From contig CM119268.1 in NCBI GenBank assembly GCA_051294375.1, positions 8,613,008 to 8,677,007 on the forward strand: a DNA stretch of 64,000 nt, written 5' to 3'. The stretch's first letter is position 1. Each line of letters starts with the position of its first letter. Position numbers and translations under genes: made by a program. Of this stretch, positions 1-47,086 are shown piece by piece. Under the pieces are notes generated by a model. The model was not told the DNA's origin. It ran no database searches and was given only the letters and a program-made list of their open reading frames with translations. Origin of the DNA: Paraspadella gotoi (taxonomy: Eukaryota; Animalia; Chaetognatha).

Positions 1-277
1 ATCAGGGGAGATCAGAGGAATAGAGATGGAATTGAGGATGATTTACTACGTGAGTGCGGGAGAGTATGAATGATAAAGAAAATAAGATTTATCAAGAGAA
101 ATAAAAAAGAGAAAGATTTATTAGGTAAAAAATTATCAACAAGATTGCTTAAATGTATATTTGTTATTAATGCCATCTTTCCCCCATTTCACATTTCCCT
201 TTTATTTTATTTTTTTTCACCACCAACTTAACAATTACAGCCACCTCTTCTTCCCCACAACCCGTTAAAAACTTCAG

Positions 278-3200
278 GAGCTTCTCGCGCAAGCCGGAGC
301 CATGATCTCGGAGACGGTCACTCAGATCCGCACGGTGCGGGCCTTCGCGGCCGAGTCCCGCACGCAGAAGGCCTTTCATGCGATTTTGCAGATTGCCTAT
401 GAGGACGGCCTCAAGCTCATCTTCATTCGCGCTGGGTTCGACGCCCTCGAGACCTTCCTCTTCAACATCTGCTACGCTGGATTCTTTATCCTCGCTGTCT
501 TCATGATTATCTGGGGCAAAATCAAAATGGATAATGTACTTGTCTTGCTCATTTACGTCACGCAGGTGGAAAGGGCGGACCTGGTGGTCCGTCTTCGGGC
601 GTCTTTCGTATCGTGTAGATCCGAATCATGAACGCCTCTTTCTCCAGGTTATCGCCGGCTCGGTCGAGTTGATGATGGGAGTAGCGCATGTGGCCGAAGC
701 TACGGGTGCTTCCACGCGGACCTTCGACATCCTACAAACGCGACACGAAGACATCGTCGACAAGGCCCGATTTCGCCGGATGCTCAAGATCACGAACCCA
801 TCGTTGGAGCACTCGGCCAAGGATTTTGACGGCTCCATCGTTTTTGACAACGTCTGCTTCTCCTACGGGAGATCGCCTCGGAATGTGTTGACCGGTGATT
901 CCGAGCCGTTGGTTGGGGGGAGGTGATTGATGTTGTTGATGATGTAAGTCTTCTGCATCATCATCTTAGTCCTTGTCGGCTGCGAGTAGTTGTTGGTTCC
1001 AGGGATGTGGAGCCGGAGTCGGAGCTGGAGCCGGAGCTGAAATATATAAATCTGAAATTTTTTTTCTGTAATAAAAACCTAAATCATTTATATATCAAAA
1101 TTTTATATTGATTGGTTTTGATTTGACTTGGCACTGAGCGGAGAAAAGTTGCCTTCAAAATTGAGTTTAATTTTAAAACTCTATTTTTTTTTTTAAATCT
1201 GTTTGTCTAACTTTTTAACTATTTTTTTACAAAACTTTATATAAAAAGGTATCAATATTAATATCTTCTGAAAGCTCTTAAAAAGATTGGCATAATTAAA
1301 AATACTGTAATTTTAAAATTAGCCTATCTTACTTTAAGATAATTATTAAATTAAAAATTCTTAAAGAGCAGTTTTTGAATAATTATTAAATTATTGTTAG
1401 CTGTTTTAATTTAGTTTTTTTATGCTTTTTTATGATACCTATATAAACAATAATTGGTAAGATCATTATAGTAAAAAAAGGTCAGATATTTAAAAAAAAA
1501 TATTTTAGGATTTTATTATTTTAATTTAGATTATTTTGATTAAACTAAAGCTGGTTAAGCTTATTTTCAAGTTACAATATTCTTAAATATATCATTTTCT
1601 TCAAATTTTCAAGAGCTTTCAGAAGATATTAATATTAATACCTTTTTATATAAAAGTTCTTATTTGGAAAAAAAACAAAAATTTGTTATTTGATAACAAT
1701 GATTTTGTTTTTTTTTTAAATCGGACATGTTTCGACTCTAGGACTTCAGAGTCTTCATCAGCATTTAAATTTACAAACGTTTCAGTTTTTAAATATTGAG
1801 TTTGCAAATTTAAATGCTGATGAAGACTCAAAAGTTATAGAGTCGAAACATGTCCGATTTAAATAAAAACAAAATTATTGTTGTCAAATAATCAAATAAT
1901 CTGAGTTTTAAGTAAAATCACTATAACAAGAATGCTAAATATAATTCACAGTTAAATTACCAAATATTTTGCTTATTATTTTAATATTTTTTAAAATAAT
2001 TTTAATTATATATATTTTTTAATATTAAATATATTATAATATAAAACAAATATTAAATATAGTTAAAATATATGCTGGAGCCGGAGCCGGAGCTGGAGCC
2101 GAGACAAAATTAGGTCGGCTCCACATCCCTGGTTGGTTTATTATGTGGTGTTAAGACTCGTTGCGATAGATATTTAATTACTTATTGCACTATCATACTC
2201 AATTAAAAAAAACGACAAAAGCAGCGATATCATCTACGGGAGGAGAAATAACGCCAACGTCAAATCCGGCCACCCTCATCTCTCTGTCCCAGACGTCAGT
2301 TTCGAGGTCAAATCGGGCCAGACGGTGGCGCTGGTGGGCGCGTCCGGCGGAGGAAAGTCCACGATCGTCTCGATCATCGAGCGATTCTACAATATAAATT
2401 CCGGTGCCGTCTTAGTTGGCGGCCGCAACGTCGCCAACATCGACGCCGCTTGGATGCGGAAATATCTCGTCAGCATTGTGGCGCAGGAGCCGAGTCTCTT
2501 CCAGGGCACGGGTTCGTCGAAACGAAGGGGTTGTATTGCTTGTTATTGTTTGTGATTAATATTTTTATTAGTTTTAGTCGCGGCGACAAGGCGACTCAAT
2601 GAGATAATTTTCTTGTTGGTCCATGGACATTATTTTAAGAATAAGTTGATATTCATGGTATTCAAATGCCAAGCGCTGAAGAAGGCTCGAATTTTGTGAG
2701 CCGAAACATGTCTGCATCTTATTAAATAAAATCGTTGTACAAAATTAAAAACTTTGCTAAGAATAAGTTGAAAAACTACAAAATATTTTAGATGTTTTCT
2801 ATTGTCTAGATCTCGTTTTCAGTGAGAACGATAATAAAAAGTTAACTGGAGGAAAAATAAGGGAAAAAAATATATCAATATTCAATAACAATAACGATTA
2901 AAAGGCTCATAGATGAATGAACATATGTTTTTATAGTGGTTATACCAATTTCGTTGAGAGCGCCTCGACTAATAGATCGCTGGAATCAGCGTCAACAACT
3001 GCAACAACGCCTTCCCGTTTCAGTACGTTCGAACATCGCCTACGGTCGCCCCGAGGCATCCAAGGCCCGCGTCGAGGAAGTGGCTCGCCAAGCCAACGCC
3101 CACGACTTCGTGTCCGAGATGGACAAAGGTTACGGGACTCTGGTGGGAGAGCGCGGCGTCAAATTGTCTGGAGGACAAAAGCAGAGAATCGCCATCGCGA

Positions 3201-3969
3201 GAGCGTTGCTGATGGAATCGAAGATATTGCTGTTGGACGAGGCAACGTCGGCCTTGGACGCCGAGAGCGAGTCTTTGGTTCACGTAAGGAAAAGGGGGTT
3301 GTGGGTGAGGAATGGTAAGAGGCGGGAATGGTGGCGGAGGGAGGGGGGGTTAACAGAGGTGAGAGAAGAGAGAAGACAGTTTTAAACAAAGTAAGATTAG
3401 ATAGTAAAGTTTGATACCGAAGCTTTTTTAAGCTTTTTTAAAGCTTTTTAAAAAGAGAAACGAAAAAGGATTTCTTGTTCTGTGTATGTATCTCCGATGA
3501 GGAAGGGGTAATAATAATGAGGGTGAGCAAGAAGCGGATGTAAAATCGCGATCGGCATTAGAATACATTCAAGTATTGATTTAAAATGAGGAAAGATAAG
3601 TTAAAGAGAGTTCAGGAATTAAAAACATTTAACTAATGCCCTTGTTTTAGAAAGAGACCGGACCTTTTTTTTTACTATATCAATTCCAGTGAGTCAAGAA
3701 AGGCAGGTTACTGCAAACCCTTTACGAAAAAAGAAAACCATGTTTAATCTGTGGATTGGATTTCCCAGGACGCCTTCGACCGCCTGATCGCGGATTCCGG
3801 CACGACCGTCTTGGTCATCGCCCACAGACTCTCGACGATTCGATCCGCGGACGTCATTCTCGTCATCTCCGACGGGCGGATCGTTGAAAGGGGAAGTCAC
3901 GAGGCTTTGATGGCGATGGAGCAAGGGGCGTACAGGAAGTTGGTCGATAGACAGCTGACGATCGGTTGA
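278..3969 (+). CDS. ABCB-subfamily ABC transporter (end of TMD plus complete NBD), 3' part; exons 278-565, 648-894, 2293-2511, 3024-3283, 3769-3969; 5' exons lie upstream of the window
   Basis: GT-AG bounded exons join in frame. They give the ABCB TMD motif [15 protein letters not shown], Walker [11 protein letters not shown]-loop VAQEPSLF, signature [15 protein letters not shown], Walker B/D-loop [13 protein letters not shown]-loop IAHRLSTI, and stop TGA at 3967-3969. Half versus full transporter cannot be decided from this window. Confidence 0.95.
1231..1658. repeat. ~48-bp inverted repeat pair (possible nested foldback/MITE) inside the hAT element
   Basis: 1231-1279 (aaaactttatataaaaaggtatcaatattaatatcttctgaaagctctt) is the near-perfect reverse complement of 1611-1658. 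Confidence 0.7.
1724..1761 (-). ncRNA. Minimal type I hammerhead ribozyme
   Basis: Minus strand reads CUGAUGA-A-GACUC-(10-nt loop)-GAGUC-GAAA-CAUGUC: conserved core, 5-bp stem II, palindromic ACAUGU stem III, GUC cleavage triplet. Confidence 0.8.
1817..1854 (+). ncRNA. Minimal type I hammerhead ribozyme
   Basis: CUGAUGA-A-GACUC-aaaaguuaua-GAGUC-GAAA-CAUGUC. Flanks uuuaaaug / c(g)auuuaaa can form stem I. Confidence 0.82.
2676..2712 (+). ncRNA. Minimal type I hammerhead ribozyme (Penelope-like remnant) in ABC intron
   Basis: CUGAAGA-A-GGCUC-(loop)-GAGCC-GAAA-CAUGUC. Stem II shows a compensatory change relative to the GACUC/GAGUC copies. AATAAA follows at ~2725. Confidence 0.8.
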
Positions 3970-4714: not shown

Positions 4715-6041
4715 AGGCGTAGTGAAAGTTACATACGAAAATTCTAAAAGTCAATTATGAACAACATACCATCAGTTGAACATTAATTTGTAAAAAAAAT
4801 TAATTTTATTTTTTTTGCAGTAGGCTATATTTATATATAGTACTCTGGTGGTCCTATCACCACAGATGGATTAAAGCTGTTTCTTTCACAGCGCCTCAGT
4901 GGCTCAGTGGACTAATGCACCATCCCAATGTGCGTCCCTGGTTCGAGCCCTGAGGTTGTCATGTAGAAAGTGGGATGGACCGGGTAACCCGCCTGTAGGC
5001 ATGCGCTACTGCCAGATCCAAAGCTCTGGACTACATGAACATGCTGTCTCGCTGTCACCACGAGGTGACACCGCTGTGGGTGTGGCGCCCTGTAAAACCA
5101 GCCTCTTCAATGGTGAGCCCAACGTGATACGAACACGCAACCAACCGGGCATGATAATACTCCTCTGCCCTTGATGTGGTTTGAGCTACGCAGCTGCCAC
5201 TCAAAGCAAGACCACCAGAATGAAGAGAGGTTCAGCGGAGAGACATGCGCTTCATCCCCTGCTTCGTACTCTCATATGCGAGAGTCCTGGGGGCGGCTTT
5301 CTGGTGGTCCTATCACCACAGATGGATTAAAGCTGTTTCTTTCACAGCGCCTCAGTGGCTCAGTGGACTAATGCACCATCCCAATGTGCGTCCCTGGTTC
5401 GAGCCCTGAGGTTGTCATGTAGAAAGTGGGATGGACCGGGTAACCCGCCTGTAGGCATGGGCCTACTGCCAGATCCAAAGCTCTGGACTACATGAACATG
5501 CTGTCTCGCTGTCACCACGAGGTGACACCGCTGCGGGTGTGGCGCCCTGTAAAACCAGCCTCTTCAGTACTATCCTTATAAAATCGAAAAATTTCAAAAT
5601 AAGCTTTTCTTAATTTTGATTGCATATTTGAATTCCTCGTCAAAAGTTGATAAAAGAAAATATAAATCATTTTTAAAATTCTTTCATTAAGTGGGTTAAA
5701 AATTAAAAAAACTATATTTAATATATAAAAAGTTAATTTTTAGCTTCAAATATAGCTTATTCTAATTTTTGACCCACTTAATGAAGGAATTTTTCAAAAA
5801 GAGTTATATTTCTTTTTACAACTTTTTATGACGAATCTAAATCTGCAAAAAAATCTTAGAAAAAACTGTTTTGAAATTTTACATTTATTGATTTAGTACT
5901 AGTATAAATATGGCCTACTGCGTAAATTGTAAAATTTATTATAAACTTTTTTATTACATAAATGTTCATTAATATAATGTTGTTCGTTCCTCACTTTTAG
6001 AATTTTAATTAAAGTTTAAATTTAGAAATTTTACTACGCCT
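4715..6041. mobile_element. Foldback-type MITE (~600 bp imperfect palindrome) interrupted by the small LTR element
   Basis: Ends AGGCGTAGT / ACTACGCCT flanked by TA. Segments 4740-4843 plus 5567-5720 are degenerate reverse complements of ~5748-6007 (e.g. gcagtaggctatatttata vs tataaatatggcctactgc; ttcattaagtgggttaaaaatta vs taatttttgacccacttaatgaa). Confidence 0.7.
4844..5566 (+). mobile_element. Non-autonomous miniature LTR retrotransposon (TRIM) with tRNA-derived LTRs (Helenus-like)
   Basis: LTRs 4844-5109 and 5300-5566 are ~99% identical and end in CA. TSD GTAC(T) on both sides. 190-bp non-coding interior starts with PBS-like TGGTGAGCCCAACGTG (5111-5126, similar to the tRNA-Lys PBS TGGCGCCCAACGTG) and ends with a G-rich tract. 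Each LTR has Pol III A box TGGCTCAGTGG (4900-4910) and B box GGTTCGAGCCC (4940-4950). Confidence 0.9.
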
Positions 6042-21639: not shown

Positions 21640-21868
21640 TGAAGAGGCTGGTTTTACAGGGTGACAGCGGGACAGCATGTTCATGTAGTCCAGAGCTTTG
21701 GATCTGGCAGTAGGCCCATGCCTACAGGCGGGTTACCCGGTCCATCCCACTTTCTACATTACAACCTCAGGGCTCGAACCAGGGACGCACATTGGGATGG
21801 TGCATTAGTCCACTGAGGCGCTGCGAAAGAAACAGCTTTAATCCATCTGTGGTGATAGGACCACCAAA
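21640..21868 (-). mobile_element. Solo LTR of the tRNA-derived TRIM family
   Basis: Reverse complement of the 4844-5109 LTR with two internal deletions (one removes the A box). Flanked by a TSD (A)AAAC at 21636-21639 and 21869-21872. Confidence 0.9.
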
Positions 21869-25842: not shown

Positions 25843-27243
25843 GAGAGAGAGAGAGAGAAGAAGAGAGAGAGAGAGAGAGAAACCCTTTGTCCTAAATATG
25901 GATACAATTATTTTTCCGGAAATAACGACTTTGGGTCCGAAAATTAATCTAATTTTCTTTACTATTTTAGGTAATGGAATTTGTTGCGCAAAGATTTATT
26001 TATTTATTTTGTTAATATAGTATATATAGTAATATTGCAGTAGTCGTTCTTTGAGACATTTATAACTTACTTATTTAATGATTGAATAATGTTATATTAA
26101 ATTTCGCCAATTTCATTTAAGGATGATATTTTTGATGGTGGATTATCAAATTTTTGAAAACGATGATAATAAAGATGACGATAATGAAAATGATGATACA
26201 ACGATAATGAAAATGATAATGACAATGATGATACAATGATAATGAAAATGATGATGACAATGATGATGACAATGATGATGACAATGTTGATAACAATGAT
26301 AATGTAAATGATAATGAAAATGAAGATAACAGTGATGATGAAAATGATGATGACAATGATGATAACAGTGATGATGACAATGATTATAACAATGATGATG
26401 ACAATGATGCTGAAAATTATAATGACGGTGAAGAGAAGAGAGAATCGGTTTAAAAAGAAACAAATTGGACCAAAGGAAAAAAAAGTTTAGAGTGGGTAAG
26501 GTCAAGGGTCACGGCTTTAAATAGCTGCTGTAGGGAAACTATGACTGATTCGGGTTGGAAACGATTCTTGGAATGGGAAGGGTGGGGGTCACGTTAGAGA
26601 GAGGGGGAGAGAGAGAGAGCGAGAGAGAGATAGAGAGAGAGAGAGAGAGTCCCTTTAATCTACTTCGTAGTTTTCATTTCGATCGTTAACTTCAGCTTTA
26701 TAATTGTCGCTGCCAATCAAAGAGCGACGTTAACCTGAGGCTGAGATCCGCTGCTTAATTCTCCTTTCGTCGTCGTTGTTGTTGTTGTAGCCGCCCCGAC
26801 GAAAAGGCCGGGATGAATTCTTGAATATTAGAATGATTTGAAGATAAAGTTAATCCGGCAGAAAAAGGCATTTCTTGACCAGAGCTGAAAGGAAATGAGC
26901 CAGCTTTTTTATAATTTTTAAAAAATTTTCAATCTTATCTAAAACGGAATCAAATTTCGTCAAATTGCATCAAGAAGCCTCGAAATAGAGATTTTTTCGG
27001 TTACTGTGCCAAGCTGTGTAGACTGTACTGTAGTCGTAGTACTGTACTGTAGTCTGTAGTCGTCAACATCGTCGTCGTCGTCGTCGTCGTCGTCGACGTC
27101 GGCAAAAACTGTTGTGACCTAGAAGTGGACCAGCTGCTTCCAAATTCGAATAAGTGTCTTTTTAGGTTGAGACGTTTGTGCCAATTCTCAATTTCACAAC
27201 CAATAGGCTTCAGATTTTTACAACATTTATTTTTTTTTCATTT

Positions 27244-27246
<3 letters not shown>

Positions 27247-27335
<89 letters not shown>

Positions 27336-27338
27336 TTT
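27247..27338. repeat. (ATTT)n microsatellite (mirror copy ~34257-34340)
   Basis: Pure run seen directly. Confidence 0.95.
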
Positions 27339-28110
27339 TGGATCGGTTTGCCTGAATAACTTTACTGTAATTGGTATTTACCTAATTAGACAATAAAAAA
27401 AACATTTCCAAAACTTTATTTATAAAATTATCTCTCTTTTCGATTTTCTTTTTTCTCTTCGCTGGAAAATCGAAAAAACTGGACAAAATTCCTTATTTTT
27501 TTTTTTTTTGGTTTTGTTTTGTTTTGCCAAAAACAAAGAAAAAAAATTACGAACAAGAACTCGATACACAATCTGGAATTTCGCCCAGGAAAAAAAAAAA
27601 AAAAAAAGCAAATCGAAGACTCATCGCCCGCGGTCGTAGCAAATGGAAGAAGCAGCTGTTTCCTTGCGTCGACCACCCTCGGCTAGGGGGTGAGGGGAAA
27701 GGTGGGAAGGTGGCGGCGGTGGCGGGTGCCCCCGGGGGTGGGGACAATCACCGCGAAGAGGGTGATTCTAACCGAGTGATTGTTTCCAACTCGAAACCTT
27801 AATCTGTGAAACTCCATAATTATTAGGCCCCAAAATAGAAACGATACAACTTGAACACGAAAAGTTCGTCATCTCACAATCAAACTCGTAACAGTTTTTG
27901 AAAATACTTTGTTGATTTAACAAAGAATATAGTCCTCTTTTATTTTTGTTAAAAAATGATCGATTATCCAACCTGATTGGCCAGAGTGAACCGAAAACCC
28001 GGATATGCTGGCTCCTGATTGGATCTACGAATGTTAAAGAGTTTTGACAAAACTAGAACTCAAACCAGGAACAAGGAAACTATCGGCGAAGAAAATTAGG
28101 TGACCTGAAT

Positions 28111-28170
<60 letters not shown>
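28111..28170. repeat. (TCG)n/(ACG)n trinucleotide microsatellite (mirror copy ~33418-33480; shorter ones at ~10804, 21305, 27069)
   Basis: Pure run seen directly. Confidence 0.95.
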
Positions 28171-28171
<1 letters not shown>

Positions 28172-29358
28172 TTTCTCATTTATTTATATCGGATGTTTTG
28201 AAGCAATTTCCCTTCACGATTGCATCCTTGAAATATTAAAAACTCGTCGTTGCCAACGAATTTGACTCTTAATCAAATATATATACTATTCTCTCACTCA
28301 AAATTCATTTCGGCGAAAAACCAAATATAAAACGAAAGGAATTCGTTGGAGACGGCACTCCCTTCAACCGCCCACCTCAGGAGAGGAAACTCCTTTCCCC
28401 GCCTTCCGATTACGCAACCCGCCGCAAATTACGTTGCCATCAGCGCCATCCTTCCTAACGCCACCCCGAACAAACTCCACCCCTTTCTTCCACCCCCCCC
28501 CTCCGCCACCCACAACCCTCGCCCACCAAATTCTGAGACTCAGGCGCGATCGGCGAAAGGAAGATTCGTTCGGGATTTCGAGGCGGAAAATGGAACAAAG
28601 ATTACAAAATGAAGCCAAAATCGGAAGGAGTAATTATTATAAATATTATAGCTATATCAGTTTCATAAAAGTCAGCTCCTTGTATTTTAATGTTCGTGCA
28701 GAGTACAGTGAGTGCACTATAGTATTTTCCGATCTAATACTTACGGGAATCGTCCTTTAATTAAAATTAAATAGTTCATTGAACGTAAGCCAGGCACTGC
28801 AGGGAGCTATTAAACTAGACAGTGAGAGTGTGAGAGTCTTAATTGAAAGCTTGGAGGGACTTGCTGACATCGAGAGGGATGAAGGCCTTAAACCACCAAA
28901 GCCTGTCTAGTGTCTATTGTTCGGTGTCCAAAGTCGGGGGTAAGATCGCTTATTTATTAAATTTTTTTTTTCATGTTTTTATTCTAAAAAAAACTTGGTT
29001 GATTAAGTTCATTTCTTTGTTCCTTTCTAACCTATGTAGTATGTATGTCAGTAAAAACTTATATTACACGCAGGGTTACAAGCAGATGTTACCTCTAAAA
29101 AATTATACGTCAATTCTTTAGATTTGAGGGCTTAAAGCCCACATTTTTCTCGTACGGATTTAACCTTAGAAATGTTACAATATATCAATCCTTCAATAAA
29201 CTCGATGGAATTGGAAAAGTAAAGACAAAAAAAAATTGTAAAACATTTTTTTTCTTTCGTGAAAAAATCGCTCTCCCGTCGAATGATACGAGAAAAGGGT
29301 ACCGATCAAAGTTACATTTCGTTCTCTCTCTCTCTCTCTCTCTCATCTCTCTCTCTTC

Positions 29359-29391
<33 letters not shown>

Positions 29392-29501
29392 TCCTCTCTC
29401 TCAATTTTTCTCTGCTGGGAAATTCCATCTCTCTCCGCTCTCATAAGATTGTGGTAAGCTGGCATTTCCCTCGATTTCGGTATCATCCGCACGTCATCAA
29501 T

Positions 29502-29574
<73 letters not shown>

Positions 29575-29913
29575 GCATCCATTTCAGGGCGACCTGATTT
29601 CAATACGAGTCTTACGACGTTGGGTTCAACGACTACAATAGTCTCAATATTGTACATTATATTTCCCTTTAATCCTCTTAAATGTAAATCATCAAATCGG
29701 TTCCTCGTCCAATCATGACCCGCGCTCTCCTTTTGGTCACGACGATATTTCACTACGAATTCGAAATTTGTGAAAAAGTATGAAAAGTCAAATCGATGAA
29801 TCATTTTCATAGTGAGAAAAAAAATCGCCTTTTAAAGTTTCGAGAAAAAGGAGAAAATTTTTTTTTTTGTTGAAGATTTCGTCTGGAAACCAAACCCACT
29901 TCGTTTTTTTTAT

Positions 29914-29992
<79 letters not shown>

Positions 29993-30421
29993 AGAGAGGG
30001 AGAGAGAGAGAGAGAGAGAGAATTTTGCAATCTGCAGGCTCGCCTCATTATGTTTCTTTTCCCCTTCTCTCTCTTTTTAGTTTAAAACCTTTTAACATTT
30101 TAGTCTTTAATTTTATACTTAACTTACGAGTATTTCATTCTCTTGTTTGTTCCACAGTTGCATCGATCATCGACTTTCTTAATCTTTTTTTCATCCAGCG
30201 CTTTTTAATCCCCTGCTTCATTTCTTGTAAATTCACACCCTCTTCGTTTAACCTTTCTTTCTCTTTCCCACAACAACGACAACGATTACGGAATGATCAC
30301 TCTCCGCTCTTCGTCCCTTTCCATCGCTATCATCATCATCATTATCATCATCATCATCATCATCATCATCATTATCATCATCATCATCAACATCATCTTC
30401 AACATAATCATCATCATCATC

Positions 30422-30484
<63 letters not shown>

Positions 30485-30722
30485 TTTATCAGTATCTCTA
30501 TCTTTTTCATCTCCACATCATTTTCCCTTCCCGACCCCCGTTTGCTTCTCCTCCTCCTCTTCCTCCTCCTCCTTCTCCTCCTCCCCTGCTCCACCTCCCT
30601 CCCCGCCCGGTGAATGGAACCGAACGCCTTGAGAATTCCACGTCGTGACGAAGCCCGGGGTACTACGGGAACCAATCCGCGTCCAGAACGGCGCCGGGAT
30701 TTGAGCGATGTCAAGACGCGTA

Positions 30723-30747
30723 NNNNNNNNNNNNNNNNNNNNNNNNN
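30723..30747. other. Assembly gap (25 N)
   Basis: Run of N. Confidence 1.
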
Positions 30748-30768
30748 GTACTGAGAGAGATGAGAGAA

Positions 30769-30849
<81 letters not shown>

Positions 30850-31121
30850 AGGTAAGGATGGGGAATTTAAAAATTGAGAGTTACGCGTCTTGACATCGCT
30901 CAAATCCCGGCGCCGTTCTGGACGCGGATTGGTTCCGTAGTACCCGGGCTTCGTCACGACGTGGAATCTCTCAAGGCGTTTCGGTTCCATTCACCGGGCG
31001 GGGAGGAGGTGGAGCAGGGGAGGAGGAAGAAGGAGGAGGAGGAAGAGGAGGAGGAGAAGCAAACGGGGGTCGGGAAGGGAAAATGATGTGGAGATGAAAA
31101 ATAGATAGAGATACTGATAAA

Positions 31122-31158
<37 letters not shown>

Positions 31159-31584
31159 GATGATGATGATGATGAAGATTGATGATGATGATTATGGTTG
31201 AAGATGATGTTGATGATGATGATGATAATGATGATGATGATGATGATGATGATGAGATATAATGATGATGATGATAGCGATGGAAAGGGACGAAGAGCGG
31301 AGAGTGATCATTCCGTAATCGTTGTCGTTGTTGTGGGAAAGAGAAAGAAAGGTTAAACGAAGAGGGTGTGAATTTACAAGAAATGAAGCAGGGGATTAAA
31401 GCGTGGATGAAAAAAAGTTAAGAAAGTCGATGATCGATGCAACTGTGGAACAAACAAGAGAATGAAATACTCGTAAGTTAAGTATAAAATTAAAGACTAA
31501 AATGTTAAAAGGTTTAAACTAAAAGAGAAGAGAAGGGAAAGAAACATAATGAGGCGAGCCTGCAGATTGCAAAATTCTCTCTCT

Positions 31585-31706
<122 letters not shown>

Positions 31707-32045
31707 TAAAAAAAACGAAGTGGGTTTGGTTTCCAGACCGAAATCTCAAGCAAAAAAAAAAATTTTCTCCTTTTTCTCGAAACTTTAAAAGGCGATTTTT
31801 TTTCTCACTATGAAAATGATTCATCGATTTGACTTTTCATACTTTTTCACAAATTTCGAATTCGTAGTGAAATATCGTCGTGACCAAAAGGAGAGCGCGG
31901 GTCATGATTGGGACGAGGAACCGATTTGATGATTTACATTTAAGAGGATTAAAGGGAAATATATGTACAATATTGAGACTATTGTAGTCGTTGAACCCAA
32001 CGTCGTAAGACTCGTATTGAAATCAGGTCGCCCTGAAATGGATGC

Positions 32046-32091
<46 letters not shown>

Positions 32092-32200
32092 ATGATGATG
32101 ATGATGATGATGATGACGTCGATGATACCGACATCGAGGGAAATGCCAGCTTACCACAATCTTATGAGAGCGGAGAGAGTGGAATTGTCCCAGCCAGAGA

Positions 32201-32260
<60 letters not shown>

Positions 32261-33417
32261 AGAGAGAAGAGAGAGAGAGAAGAGAGAAACGAAATGTAAC
32301 TTTGATCGGTACCCTTTTCTCGTATCATTCGACGCGAGAGCGATTTTTTCACGAAAGAAAAAAAATGTTTTACAATTTTTTTTTTGTCTTTACTTTTCCA
32401 ATTCATCGAGTTTATTGAAGGATTGATATATTGTAACATTTCTAAGGTTAAATCCGTACGAGAAAAAATGTGGGCTTTAAGCCCTCAAATCTAAAGAATT
32501 GACGTATAATTTTTTTAGAGGTAAATCTGCTTGTAACCCTGCGTGTAATATAAGTTTTTACTGACATACATACTACATAGGTTAGAAAGGAACAAAGAAA
32601 TGAACTTAATCAACCAATTTTTTTAGAATAAAAACATGAAAAAAAAATTTAATAAATAAGCGATCTTACCCCACTTGACTACTGAAGTGGTGGCTTTAAG
32701 GCCTTCATCCCTCTCGATGTCAGCAAGTCCCTCCCAAGCTTTCAATTAAGACTCTCACACTCTCACTGTCTAGTTTAATAGCTCCCTGCAGTGCCTGGCT
32801 TACGTTCAATGAACTATTTAATTTTAATTAAAGGACGATCCCGTAAGTATTAGATCGGAAAATACTATAGTGCACTCACTGTACTCTGCCACGAACATTA
32901 AAATACAAGGAGCTGACTTTTATTGAAAACTGATATAGCTATAATATTATAATAATTACTCCTTCCGATTTTGGCTTCATTTTGTAATCTTTGTTCCATT
33001 TTTCCGCCTCGAAATCCCGAACGAATCTTCCTTTCGCCGATCGCGCCTGAGTCTCAGAATTTGGTGGGCGAGGGTTGTGGTGGCGGAGGGGGGGGTGGAA
33101 GAAAGGGGTGGAGTTTTTGTTCGGGGTGGCGTTAGGAAGGATGGCGCTGATGGCAACGTAATTTGCGGCGGGTTGCGTAATCGGAAGGGCGGGGAAAGGA
33201 GTTTCCTCTCTGAGGTGGGCGGTTGAAGGAGTGCCGTCTCCAACGAATTCCTTTCGTTTTATATTTGGTTTTTCGCCGAAATGAATTTTGAGTGAGAGAA
33301 TAGTATATATATTTGATTAAGAGTCAAATTCGTTGGCAACGACGAGTTTTTAATATTTCAAGGATGCAATCGTTGAAGGGAAATTGCTTCAAACATCCGA
33401 TATAAATAAATGAGAAA

Positions 33418-33481
<64 letters not shown>

Positions 33482-34259
33482 ACCGTTCAGGTCACCTAAT
33501 TTTCTTCGCTGTCCTGGTTCTTAGTCTTTTTGTCAAAACTCTTTAACATTCGTAGATCAATCAGGAGCCAGCATATCCGGGTTTTCGGTTCACTCTGCCA
33601 ATCAGGTTGGATAATCGATCATTTTTTAACAAAAAATAAAAGAGGAGACTATATTCTTTGTTAAATCAACAAAGTATTTTCAAAAACTGTTACGAGTTTG
33701 ATTGTGAGATGACGAACTTTTCGTGTTCAAGTTGTATCGTTTCTATTTTGGGGCCTAATAATTATGGAGTTTCACCAGATTAAGGTTTCGAGTTGGAAAC
33801 AATCACTCGGTTAGAATCACCCTCTTCGCGGTGATTGTCCCCACCCCCGGGGGCACCCGCCACCGCCGCCACCTTCCCACCTTTCCCCTCACCCCCTAGC
33901 CGAGGTGTGGTCGACGCAAGGAAACAGCTGCTTCTTCCATTTGCTACGACCGCGGGCGATGAGTCTTCGATTTGCTTTTTTTTTTTTTTTTTTGCTTTTT
34001 TTTTTCCTGGGCGAAATTCCAGATTGTGTATCGAGTTCTTGTTCGTATTTTTTTTCTTTGTTTTTGGCAAAACACAAAAAAACCAAAAAAAAAAAAAATA
34101 AGGAATTTTGTCCAGTTTTTTCGATTTTCCAGCGAAGAGAAAAAAAAGAAAATCGAAAGAGAGATAATTTTATAAATAAAGTTTTGGAAATGTTTTTTTT
34201 ATTGTCTAATTAGGTAAATACCAATTACAGTAAAGTTATTCAGGCAAACCGATCCAAAA

Positions 34260-34323
<64 letters not shown>

Positions 34324-36917
34324 AAATAAATAAATAAATAATAAATAATAATAAAATGAAAAAAAATAAATGTTGTAAAATCTGAAGCCTATTGGTTGTG
34401 AAATGAGAATTGGCACAAACGTCTCAACCTAAAAAGACACTTATTCGAATTTGGAAGCAGCTGGTCCACTTCTAGGTCACAACAGTTTTTGCCGACGTCG
34501 AGACGACGACGACGACGACGACGATGTTGACGACTACAGACTACAGTACAGTACTACGACTACAGTACAGTCTACAAGCTTGGCACAGTTAACCGAAAAA
34601 AATTCTATTTCGAGGCTTCTTGATGCAATTTGACGAAATTTGATTCCGTTTTAGATAAGATTTAAAATTTTTTAAAAATTATAAAAAGCTGGTCATTTCC
34701 TTTCAGCTCTGGTCAAGAAATGCCTTTTTCTGCCGGATTAACTTTATCTTCAAATCATTCTAATATTCAAGAATTCATCCCGGCCTTTTCGTCGGGGCGG
34801 CTACAACAACAACAACGACGACGAAAGGAGAATTAAGCAGCGATCTCAGCCTCAGGTTAACGTCGCTCTTTGATTGGCAGCGACAATTATAAAGCTGAAG
34901 TTAACGATCGAATGAAAACTACGAAGTAGATTAAAGGGACTCTCTCTCTCTCTCTCTCTTATCTCTCTCTCGCTCTCTCTCTCTCCCCCTCTCTCTAACG
35001 TGACCCCCACCCTTCCCATTCCAAGAATCGTTTCCAACCCGAATCAGTCATAGTTTCCCTACAGCAGCTATTTAAAGCCGTGACCCTTGACCTTACCCAC
35101 TCTAAACTTTTTTTCCTTTGGTCCAATTGTTTCTTTTTAAACCGATTCTCTCTTCTCTTCACCGTCATTATAATTTTCAGCATTCATTGTCATCAATCAT
35201 TGTTATAATCATTGTCATCATCACTGTTATCATCATTTGTCATTCATCATTTTTCATTCATCACTGTTATCTTCATTTTCATTATCATTACATTATCATT
35301 GTATCAACATTGTCATCATCATTGTCATCATCATTGTCATCACATTTTCATTATCATGTGGTATCATCATTTGTCATTATTCATTTTCATTATCGTGTAT
35401 CATCATTTTCATTATCGTCATCTTTATTTCATCGTTTTCAAAAATTGATAATCCACCATCAAAAATATCATCTAAATGAAATGGCGAAATTTAATATAAC
35501 ATTATTCAATCATTAATAAGTTAAGTTAAAAATGTCTCAAAGAACAACTACTGCAATATTACTATATATACTATATTAACAAAATAATATAATAAATCTT
35601 TGCGCCAACAAATTGCCATTACCTAAAAATAGTAAAGAAAATTAGATAATTTTTCGGACCCAAAGTCTTATTTCCGAAAAAAATAATTGCTAGTCCATAT
35701 TTAGGACAAAGGGTTTCTCTCTCTCTCTCTTCTCTCTCTCTCTCTTCTCTCCTCTCTCTCTCCTCTCTCTCCTCTCCTCTCTCTCTTTCTCCCTCTCTTC
35801 TCTCCTCTCCATCTTCTCTCTCTTCTCTCTCCTTTCTCCACTCTTAAGTGATAGTTACAAAGTTTTATCCAGTTTCCGGGGTGCAAATCAATTTCCGATA
35901 TTTTGTTTTAAGAAACTCGTTCAATATACAGCAAAGTTGTTTTTTGTTTTAAACATCGTTTTTCTCGTTCGGAAATGCCCACGTCTTTTGAACAAACTGT
36001 CAACTTTTTTCAACGCTGACGTACAGGACTCACCAACCGCAGCCTTACATTCTGAAATCGTTTCGCTCTCGTCTCGCTACATTTTCGATTACATTAATGT
36101 GATTAAAATTTCCTTCCAGCTTTGCTTGATTCATTTTCGCTCCCTATAATGAAATTAGATTATTCAACATGTGACTGTTTCCTTTTTTTTAAAAACACTC
36201 CCGCCCACCTTACGCGTCTCGCCCTTCCTCCTCACTCCTCTCCCTCGTCCTCCTCCCAAAATAACCTTATTTCGAATTCTGATATTTTTTTCCCTTTTTT
36301 ATGTTATGTTAATTGTTATGTTTAAATCAAGAACCATTTTTTTTGGGGGCTAAGAAGGAATTTTGTTACTGAAGGCTACCCCTGGGCGAGACGATGGTTT
36401 GTCGAGAGGAGATGCTTTGAAAGGTAAGGGCGAGGTGAGGTTTGCGAAGCTGCGGCAGCCTCCGCCGCCGCCTCCGCCGCGGCAGGAAAGCCCGCCTTTA
36501 AATATTGGGACGTGGGGTGAGAAATTTTCAGTTGGCGAAATACAAACCTTTGTCTCTCTTTCCGTTCAGAAGGAGAGATAAAGAAAACGAATGGATTTTG
36601 TATGGGACTTTCTTAAATTAAATAATTAATTAATCAATAATCAACTCATGAAAATACTCAAAAAAAACTAACAAAACTCCCTCCGACATCGTACTTGATA
36701 TAAACCCTTAAACGGAAGATAATAAAAAAAAATTAATAAAAAATATAAAATTCTGATTAAAAAAACAAGTTGAAAACCCAAAAGGGAGGCGCTCTGGCGT
36801 GGAGCGCCGCCAAACGTGATTCTAGGATAAATTTTAAAAAAATTGACTTTCGTCGGCGAAAGTTTAAAGGATAAAAACTAAGTCACAAAAACTATGAAAA
36901 TTAGACAAAAAGCGATC

Positions 36918-44619: not shown

Positions 44620-47086
44620 CAGGCCTGGAGTAAGTCGAAAATAAGTCAAAATATAAACAATATTGAAATATATCCGTACTTTAAATCTTTATTTTTTTTT
44701 CAACCAGGAATCGCTTCCATGACCGCTTCCGCCTCTGGTTCGGCCGGTACGACTGAGTGCTGACTGACTGACTGAACTACGTACATTGTGAAAAATCAAA
44801 AATGAGTTTTAATTTTGGTTTTGTTTCTCTGGTTGATTTGATTTTATCGTGCAAGAGATTTTAAAAAAATTTCTAGTTATGACAAAATTCGATAAAATAC
44901 ATTGCCCGTTTCTTTAATATTTCTTTTCAGCTTCGGGTGGTTCGTGCCCAGAGGCTGATCACGGCAAGTTCCGACCTCACCCGACCAATTGCCGGTTCTA
45001 CTACCAGTGCGACAACGGAAGACTCGTCAGAAAGGAATGCCCCAAGGATCTCTACTGGAATCAGCCACGCATGCAGTAAACAATAGATAGTAAAAAATAA
45101 TAAATATTAATTCCAACTAGGGATAAATTTAAATTTGCATTACTTTCATTTTATATTATATAACATTTGATAATTGTTCATATTGTGATTCCGATTGACA
45201 GATGCGACTACAGTTGCGACCGAGGGGCAGGCTCCGTTGCCATGGCCGGGAGCATTGGGGGAGACATGTCGAGTGGCGTGGGAGGAGCGACGAGCGGCAT
45301 GGGAGGAGGAGGAATGTCGAGCGGCATGGGAGGAGGAGGAGGAATGTCGAGCGGCATGGGTGGAGGAATGTCGGGTGGAATGGGCGGCAGCCACGGTGGC
45401 ATGGGGGGTAGCATGGGTGGTAGCATGGGAGGAGGAATGTCGAGCGGCACGTCAGGCGTCTTCGGTAACAACATGGGCTCTTCCGACAGCGCTTCAGGTA
45501 ATTTTATGATGTTGCTCTCACTAGAGCCTCATCGATGAGTCATCAATGAGTCATCATGCTCAAGGCTCATAGCTACTCTCGCACTCAACAATTTAGGCTT
45601 CAATAAAAATAAAATATAAAAAAAGTTTCATTTTAAATTTTTATTTGAGGATTCGGCGGCGAAGTCATCGGCACTTCGAGCGGATCATCCGGAATGTCCG
45701 ACGGATCTTCCTTCATGTCTGGAGGCTCCGGAATGTCCGATGGATCTGGCATGTCTACCGGATCTGGGGCAACAAATGGATTCGGTATGTCGGGTGGTTT
45801 TGAGAGCATCAAAGATAGATATGCCACGATGGGCATTAGGCAGTTATGGGCTTTAGATTGGAGCAGTTGTATACATAAGCTCAAAAATTTTACTGAAGAT
45901 GTCAATTATTGTATTTTTTCACCTAATATATTTAGGAAAAAAATTTAGTTATTATTTGCTTTGTATAAGAAAGCATAAATAAAGTATTATTATTTATTAT
46001 ATGTTTTTATTTTTTTTAATTTAGTTATTATTTGCTTTGGATAAGAAAGCATCAATAAAGTATTATTATTTATTATATGTTTTAATTTTTTTAAATTTAG
46101 CTATTATTTGCTTTGCATAATAAAGCATCAATAAAGTCTTATTATTTATTATATGTTTTCTTTTTTTTTTAAATTGAGTTATTATTTGCTTTGTATAAGA
46201 AAGCATCAAATAAGTATTATTGTTTATTTATTATATCTTTTCATCACTTCTCCTCATCGGGCATGCCAGGGAGCTCTGGCGCTTCAACTGGATTTGATAT
46301 CTGGGGAGGATCTGGAATGTCAAGTGGATCAGGCATGTCCAGTGGTTCAGGCATGTCCAGTGGTTCAGGAATGTCCAGCGGGACAGGCATGTCTAATGGA
46401 TTTGGCATGTCTGCTGGTTCAGGCATGTCAAGTGGATCTGGAATATCTGGTGGGGCAGGCATGTCTAATGAATTTGGCATGTCAGGAGGATCCGGCATGT
46501 CAAGTGGAACTGGACTATCCTCTGGGACTGACATGTCAAATGGTTTTGGTATGTCGGGAGGTTCTGGCATGTCAAGTGGATCTGGAATGACCAGTGGGTC
46601 CGGCACTTCGAATGGATTTGGTATGTCGGGAGGTTCTGGCATGTCAAGTGGATCTGGAATGACCAGTGGGTCTGGCACTTCGAATGGATTCGGAATGTCA
46701 GGAGGTTCTGGCATGTCAAGTGGATCTGGAATGACCAGTGGCTCCGGCACTTCGAATGGATTCGGAATGTCAGGAAGTTCTGGCATGTCTAGTGGGTCTG
46801 GATCGGGTACGACGAATGGATTTGGCATGTCTAGCGGGTCCAACATGTTCGGGACATCCGATGGATCTGGGATGTCCGGTGGTTCTGGCATGTCAGGAGG
46901 ATCGACGGGCGGATTTGGAGGGTCAAACTCGGGTAATGACAATGATACACGGCACAGCCTTTGCATGCGAGGTTATCACAATGCTTCTCTTCAAGACGCA
47001 TCAGAGATATATTCACTTTGATTTGCAACACCGTCACCGTGCTCTTCACATTTAATACTCTCCCACGCTCTCTACCTTACTTTTTA

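Follow-up and report, generated by a model that had tools for sequence, protein, structure and literature searches.

We analyzed a stretch of 64,000 nucleotides of the chaetognath Paraspadella gotoi (GenBank assembly GCA_051294375.1, contig CM119268.1, positions 8,613,008 to 8,677,007 of the forward strand; hereafter, the window). At window positions 4844–5566 it contains a 723-bp non-coding element bounded by long terminal repeats (LTRs), each of which carries a tRNA-derived promoter segment followed by a motif resembling a twister ribozyme (Table 1). The LTRs, of 266 and 267 bp, share 98.9% identity, being two substitutions and one indel apart. Nine open reading frames (ORFs) of at least 30 amino acids touch the element; the longest ATG-initiated one is of 65 amino acids. 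The tetranucleotide GTAC lies at both borders. The element is inserted in a repeat resembling a miniature inverted-repeat transposable element (MITE), which has a very deep coverage in public sequencing runs and provides the empty site: a joint 4838>5566, omitting 727 bases (723 + 4), is present in all four public runs, in 14, 4, 1, and 1 contigs, respectively.

Table 1. Features of the element, of its surroundings and of the phage motif used for comparison. Coordinates refer to the window unless a contig is named.
Feature	Position	Strand	Basis or remarks
MITE-like repeat hosting the insertion, about 600 bp when empty	4715..6041	.	TA on both sides; terminal inverted repeats of about 15 bp
Left target-site duplication, GTAC	4840..4843	+	Flank sequence; empty site skips 727
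5′ LTR, 266 bp, likely TC start, CA end	4844..5109	+	LTR comparison; junction contigs
tRNA-derived segment; acceptor-like GCCTCAG/CTGAGGT, A box 4900–4910, B box 4940–4950	4893..4956	+	Predicted RNA polymerase III start at about 4893
Type-P5 twister-like motif, 5′ LTR	4959..5038	+	Predicted cut U4985^A4986
Stems of the 5′-LTR motif	P5 4959–4966/5031–5038; P2 4988–4990/4970–4973; P4 5012–5016/5025–5029		P2 one base short; P3 with private changes
Pseudoknots of the 5′-LTR motif	T1 4976–4979/5017–5020; T2 4991–4992/5023–5024		Catalytic G4974-A4975
Palindrome ACCGGGT in place of P1	4979..4985	+	5′-LTR motif
Non-coding internal region, 190 bp	5110..5299	+	LTR borders, ORF list; folding z = -0.88
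Primer-binding site, tRNA-Trp type	5111..5128	+	One base past the CA of the LTR
Short G-rich run resembling a purine tract (5289–5297) plus two bases before the 3′ LTR	5289..5299	+	
3′ LTR, 267 bp; A box 5356–5366, B box 5396–5406	5300..5566	+	LTR comparison; box pattern
Type-P5 twister-like motif, 3′ LTR	5415..5495	+	Predicted cut U5441^A5442, 456 nt past the first
Right target-site duplication, GTAC	5567..5570	+	Flank sequence
Family member reduced to a solo LTR, 229 bp	21640..21868	-	GTTT on each side; third family copy in the window
Type-P5 twister in a phage contig (L327), UAA and next GC three bases apart	74..141 of L327	+	Rfam, 42.4 bits

The family is present at many other insertion sites as well, since 15, 12, and 3 contigs (runs X1, X4, and X9, respectively) pass directly from A5566 into flanks of unrelated sequence; the sum of contig depths does not measure copy number and was not treated as doing so. 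Each repeat resembles a short interspersed element (SINE) headed by a tRNA, and the 5′ end is other than TG, as would be the case if two SINE copies lay side by side or had arisen by a chance duplication. Nevertheless, a single 4-bp duplication encloses all 723 bp, the solo LTR has a separate 4-bp duplication of its own, a tail is missing, and a primer-binding site and a purine tract are located where an LTR element is expected to have them. The letters at 4888/5344 and at 5057/5514 are common to both LTRs, while most contig depth reads otherwise, a pattern that is expected of LTRs which are both copied from a single template during reverse transcription. Taking into account the empty site and these shared letters, we reject the SINE reading as highly improbable. 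The element is a real, young, multi-copy terminal-repeat retrotransposon in miniature (TRIM) of the Helenus type. A first-pass annotation, made from the sequence only, had described a young LTR element rather than a SINE, with near-identical LTRs, a target-site duplication and no coding ORF, and all of this was confirmed. Among the contigs listed, some of X1 and X9 (window 4891–5038) represent a diverged sister subfamily, in which the tRNA part is shortened by a 6-base deletion and the twister region is altered at several positions.

The window alone is compatible either with a 4-bp duplication and a TC start or with a 5-bp duplication (GTACT) and a CT start, which also fits both window copies. 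Junction contigs disfavor the second option. Among the junction rows listed, the fifth base past CA is A in all six multi-contig 3′ rows, where the 5-bp reading requires T, and C or T directly precedes TCTGG in 11 contigs (rows 4843 and 5299); one X9 contig starts exactly at 5300. It follows from these bases that integrated copies likely begin with TC and are flanked by a 4-bp duplication; GTTT around the solo LTR is a second such duplication in the family. The departure from the canonical TG, for which the first-pass annotation offered TC or CT, therefore stands, with TC as the favored form. Target duplications lean toward a purine first and a pyrimidine last (ATAT, GTAC, GCGC-like), a weak tendency, as only few contigs contributed to the consensus letters. 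Two C interrupt the short purine tract, and the two bases that separate it from the 3′ LTR are TT in this copy and TG in contigs, position 5299 being G in all the listed depth of X1, X4, X5, and X9. This TG may stand at the place of two bases removed upon integration, or may have been left on the primer.

The primer-binding site matches the 3′ end of tRNA-Trp at 16 of 18 positions in this copy, and at 17 of 18 when 5121 is read as G, the letter that most copies carry according to contig depth; the reference is the tRNA of the honey bee and not that of the host (PMC10886601, Fig. S2; here, as for the other papers cited, statements refer to the parts of the source available to us). A Lys primer, previously suggested, pairs only with a gap, and this assignment was abandoned in favor of tRNA-Trp. 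The primer motif TGGTGAG/CCCCG is the tRNA-Trp type of Ty3/gypsy elements of the CsRn1 clade, such as PwRn1 and AgCR, which generate 4-bp duplications (PMC2582038; PMC3630058). The element shares both traits with that clade, whose members, unlike it, are autonomous and protein-coding and have LTRs that open with TGT (PMC2582038). A CsRn1-clade Gypsy is thus the likely helper, as judged from the primer site and the duplication length only, in line with the reliance on an autonomous LTR element that had been proposed for this locus.

The A box (TGGCTCAGTGG) and the B box (GGTTCGAGCCC) are 40 bases apart in each LTR, and this A + B pattern appeared in 1 of 20,000 dinucleotide shuffles of the LTR. 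GCCTCAG/CTGAGGT pairing is also present, but the tRNA-like segment folds into one long hairpin and not into a cloverleaf. ARAGORN predicted no tRNA genes across the 64-kb window at default settings; relaxed settings gave weak, overlapping calls on both strands, and a functional tRNA gene was ruled out. The boxes and the acceptor-like pairing of the tRNA-like segment described earlier hold. By analogy with the layout of tRNA genes, RNA polymerase III (Pol III) would likely start near 4893. As no run of four T (T4) occurs on the + strand within the element, the first one being located at 5605, in the flank, an LTR-to-LTR transcript of the Cassandra kind would lack an obvious stop. Folding z-scores were -2.09 for the LTR part, -0.88 for the internal region and -0.79 for the part following the tRNA segment.

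This last part holds, at matching positions of the two LTRs and 456 nt apart, the twister-like motif, which the first-pass annotation did not include. The motif retains UAA, GC, the catalytic GA, AAGC, and the AAA linker before P2. Both pseudoknots can be formed by sequence (T1, TCCA/TGGA; T2, GC/GC), and a P4 of 5 bp, a P5 of 8 bp and a P3 hairpin are present. The P3 flanks CUGUAG...CUACUG are kept, in agreement with the Schistosoma mansoni twisters of PMC8501958 (Table 1 of that paper). When compared by eye with the Rfam twister-P1 consensus, three paired double changes are apparent, one T1 pair from C-G to A-U and two P4 pairs to A-U. Core bases, both pseudoknots and P3–P5 are intact in all three copies, even though the solo LTR has decayed elsewhere, its A box having been lost through an 8-bp deletion and 30 bp being missing near its 3′ end. 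The pair probability of P5, P3, and P4 is 0.96–1.0 in the isolated 3′ motif and 0.33–0.99 in longer contexts.

A twister descriptor, built from a twister consensus after the sequence had been seen and allowing a 3-base P2 for this motif, yielded three matches on both strands of the 64 kb, all of type P5 and one in each of the three LTR copies. Type P5 was matched in none of 20,000 LTR shuffles and any permutation in one of 20,000, with 0.05 matches per shuffled window. As a control, phage loci were gathered in three scans of at least 120 loci each, most of them chance matches. The descriptor selected 4 of the 360 loci, and Rfam scores all four as twisters. These comprise 3 of 120 loci with a 4-base spacing and 1 of 240 with a 3-base spacing, figures that are too low for a frequency. 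Taken as sequence similarity, these data indicate that the motif very probably descends from a twister ribozyme.

Whether the motif is also active is a separate matter, and several observations weigh against it. The 5′ strand of P2 consists of three bases instead of four in all three window copies, which gives at best three pairs and a bulge, and in three runs no insertion in that strand reached 20% of depth; a P2 of four pairs is the rule in twisters, and any other length has been proposed to perturb the active site (PMC5408937). In an energy model without pseudoknots, a slipped 5-bp helix is preferred (-29.9 vs. -22.4 kcal/mol) in which the catalytic G is buried along with the T2 bases, the pair probability of P2 in the active register being 0.0. 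P1 is reduced to the palindrome, so that its stem is impossible within one molecule. The remnant can pair with a second copy at a computed -8.1 kcal/mol. P1 is dispensable in vitro (PMC5408937), but cleavage without it has been termed inefficient (PMC8501958). Rfam returned no twister for the element at E values up to 10, nor did any twister in the window reach the gathering score; neither a hammerhead nor anything else meaningful was retrieved for the element. The descriptor was fitted post hoc, and requiring a 4-base P2 leaves no match. As the three copies represent one family, they provide no covariation from the host itself. For the predicted circle, the gain in folding over shuffled sequences is modest (z = -1.9; 4 of 100 shuffles were equally good). 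No helper element was seen, a genome-wide search for one not having been made.

The shortened P2, the slipped helix, the missing P1 and the failure of Rfam to recognize the motif are what would be found if the element were an ordinary Helenus whose twister, a legacy of an ancestor or a sister family, is dead. Uncut Pol III RNA would then run into the flank and undergo normal strand transfer between LTR copies. Most catalogued Helenus families are mobile with no ribozyme described, the word "twister" occurring 0 times in the main text of PMC10886601. Preservation of the core, the pseudoknots and P3–P5 in the three copies speaks against a dead motif. So does a predicted phage twister of type P5 with three bases between UAA and GC: it scores 42.4 bits, above the Rfam P5 threshold of 37.6, although the Rfam model aligns it with a 4-bp P2. 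We regard a dead twister as possible but rather unlikely. We judge the motif to be probably active, i.e., capable of the predicted cleavage.

If the twister-like motif cleaves, the element could spread as the LTR retrozymes of plants do. Transcription by Pol III would begin near 4893 and, as no T4 is found on the + strand before 5605, the transcript would cross both LTRs. Cleavage at the two predicted sites, perhaps only upon dimer pairing of two palindromic P1 remnants, would free a 456-nt unit (4986–5441); between the predicted cuts lie the primer-binding site, the purine tract and as much LTR sequence as makes up a single LTR. Such a unit, of about 456 nt, had previously been anticipated with its start in the tRNA-like part; the length is plausible, but the predicted ends are at 4986 and 5441, as set by the twister-like motif. 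If both sites are cut, the piece lacks a terminal repeat for strand transfer, and a circle is therefore needed; the same argument was made for plant retrozymes, for which circles were shown (PMC4918200). The 456-nt piece would be ligated into a circle, tRNA-Trp would prime the reverse transcriptase of the helper, which would rebuild two LTRs, and the helper integrase would produce the 4-bp duplication.

We consider it about evenly balanced that the element, a Helenus-type TRIM with a P5 twister-like motif in each LTR, propagates in this way, and we hold the route through a circle at a similar, middling level of confidence. A more specific version is offered tentatively and appears rather doubtful: an animal LTR retrozyme in which a tRNA-derived Pol III promoter is combined with a twister that cuts only when LTR copies pair through their P1 palindromes, only full-length transcripts release a circle, and a Trp-primed Gypsy copies the latter and integrates it with a TC end.

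An active twister may also serve a linear cycle. Slow cutting would mainly trim the 3′ end, substituting for a Pol III terminator, and RNAs uncut in the 5′ LTR would retain a 93-nt repeat (4893–4985) for strand transfer, no circle being formed. The lack of a T4 terminator in the element agrees with this proposal, the flaws of P2 and P1 point to incomplete cleavage, and twister variants of S. mansoni process the ends of linear retrotransposon RNA (PMC8501958). The cycle would, however, require that cutting take place chiefly in the 3′ LTR, and nothing favors that motif except private P3 changes in the 5′ LTR of this copy; as the complete motif lies downstream of the promoter in both LTRs, the sequence provides no other preference. 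Dimer-dependent cleavage would, moreover, tend to hit both motifs. The linear cycle is accordingly held to be improbable.

LTR elements with a ribozyme and a circular RNA are known from plants and contain hammerheads (PMC4918200; PMC7761336), while twisters have been linked with non-LTR elements (PMC8501958). An active twister in the LTR of an animal Helenus would, if true, link the retrozyme, twister and Helenus lines, provide a second role for the twister in retrotransposons and explain how the RNA is defined in a Pol III LTR element devoid of terminators. A dead motif would leave the element as one further family of Helenus, unusual in its TC end.

With respect to the rest of the window, exons of an ABC transporter (ABC_membrane, ABC_tran) occupy 269–3385 on the + strand and end about 1.3 kb before the MITE-like repeat; the database matches listed for them were mostly ABCB proteins of plants. 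An inverted duplication of about 10 kb (approximately 25986–35605, center near 30800) has arms 86–100% alike and a central N gap, and may be an assembly fold-back. Exons with numerous CBM_14 chitin-binding domains, peritrophin- or mucin-like, extend from about 43469 to 63731 (+); within that region, a Gly/Ser/Met-rich repeat of six residues is found at 46173–47021. Of 10 CBM14 matches examined, 7 were insect proteins with 35–41% identity and two, with 75–76%, carried no name, while the Atlas yielded no more than a generic CBM14 cluster. The CBM14 genes are split by introns, which together with the 4-bp duplication makes an invertebrate animal the likely host.

In the literature searched, most subscription papers being outside its reach, no twister in an LTR element was found; the nearest cases are hammerhead retrozymes of plants, non-LTR retrozymes of animals and twisters of non-LTR RTE elements (PMC7761336; PMC6765202; PMC4918200; PMC8501958). 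Metagenome scans for relatives of the element found none. Within that same literature, we did not encounter the pairing that is our best reading of the locus, in which an element of the Helenus type has the architecture of the LTR retrozymes of plants.

Helenus TRIMs (TRIMp3; Kojima 2024, PMC10886601) occur in fungi, six animal phyla and one plant. They are well catalogued in animals, so there is no novelty in a tRNA-in-LTR layout as such, and the earlier statement that such elements are rarely annotated in animals does not apply. The element resembles them in being non-coding, in its size (within their range of 311–1263 bp), in the A and B boxes of both LTRs, in the primer-binding site and purine tract, in the 4-bp duplication (that of animal families) and in the occurrence of solo LTRs; Helenus-2_SyJa and Helenus-2_SyUm in addition share the Trp primer and a long stretch past the tRNA part (PMC10886601). 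By eye, a hammerhead-like core (CTGATGAG ... GAAAC) can be seen after the tRNA part in Helenus-2_SyJa-LTR and Helenus-2_SyUm-LTR, both from gall wasps and with a Trp primer; it goes unmentioned in the available parts of PMC10886601. The element differs from Helenus, for which those parts describe no ribozyme, in having a twister-like motif where, in many of the Helenus LTRs examined, the tRNA part is followed by a T-rich run. It also differs in its TC start: the Helenus LTR records of the PMC10886601 data file begin with TG (226) or TA (8) and in no case with TC, such a TG or TA being usual in Helenus though outside the definition given in that paper. None of six short motifs of the element was found in that file, in which line breaks can hide matches. 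Pol III transcription is likewise unvalidated for Helenus itself (PMC10886601). Cassandra, another element with a small-RNA-derived Pol III promoter in its LTRs, is a plant element with a 5S rRNA-derived promoter and a terminator within the LTR (PMC10886601), whereas that of the element is tRNA-derived and no T4 run follows.

Regarding the ribozyme, twisters of types P5 (Rfam RF02684) and P1 (RF03160) share with the motif the UAA cut site, the GC + AAGC of T2, the catalytic GA, the 4-bp T1, and P4; the motif departs from them in its P2, which is one base short, in the 7-base palindrome that replaces P1 and in lacking an Rfam score. The Perere-3 twister variants of S. mansoni have the same P3 flanks, AAA before P2 and, in the T-variants, a likewise reduced P1, but they occupy the 5′ end of RTE elements of the non-LTR class and lack the P5 permutation (PMC8501958). 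Animal retrozymes are without LTRs, primer-binding site and purine tract (review PMC7761336). Plant LTR retrozymes (Cervera et al., 2016, PMC4918200; PMC7761336) are, like the element, non-coding LTR elements with a 4-bp duplication, with a ribozyme at an equal place in each LTR, with the primer-binding site and purine tract between the cuts, and with a Gypsy helper proposed. They contain type III hammerheads, use a tRNA-Met primer and have been shown to give circles of 600–1000 nt, that of the element, of 456 nt, being predicted only. Unlike them, the element bears promoter boxes of the tRNA type.
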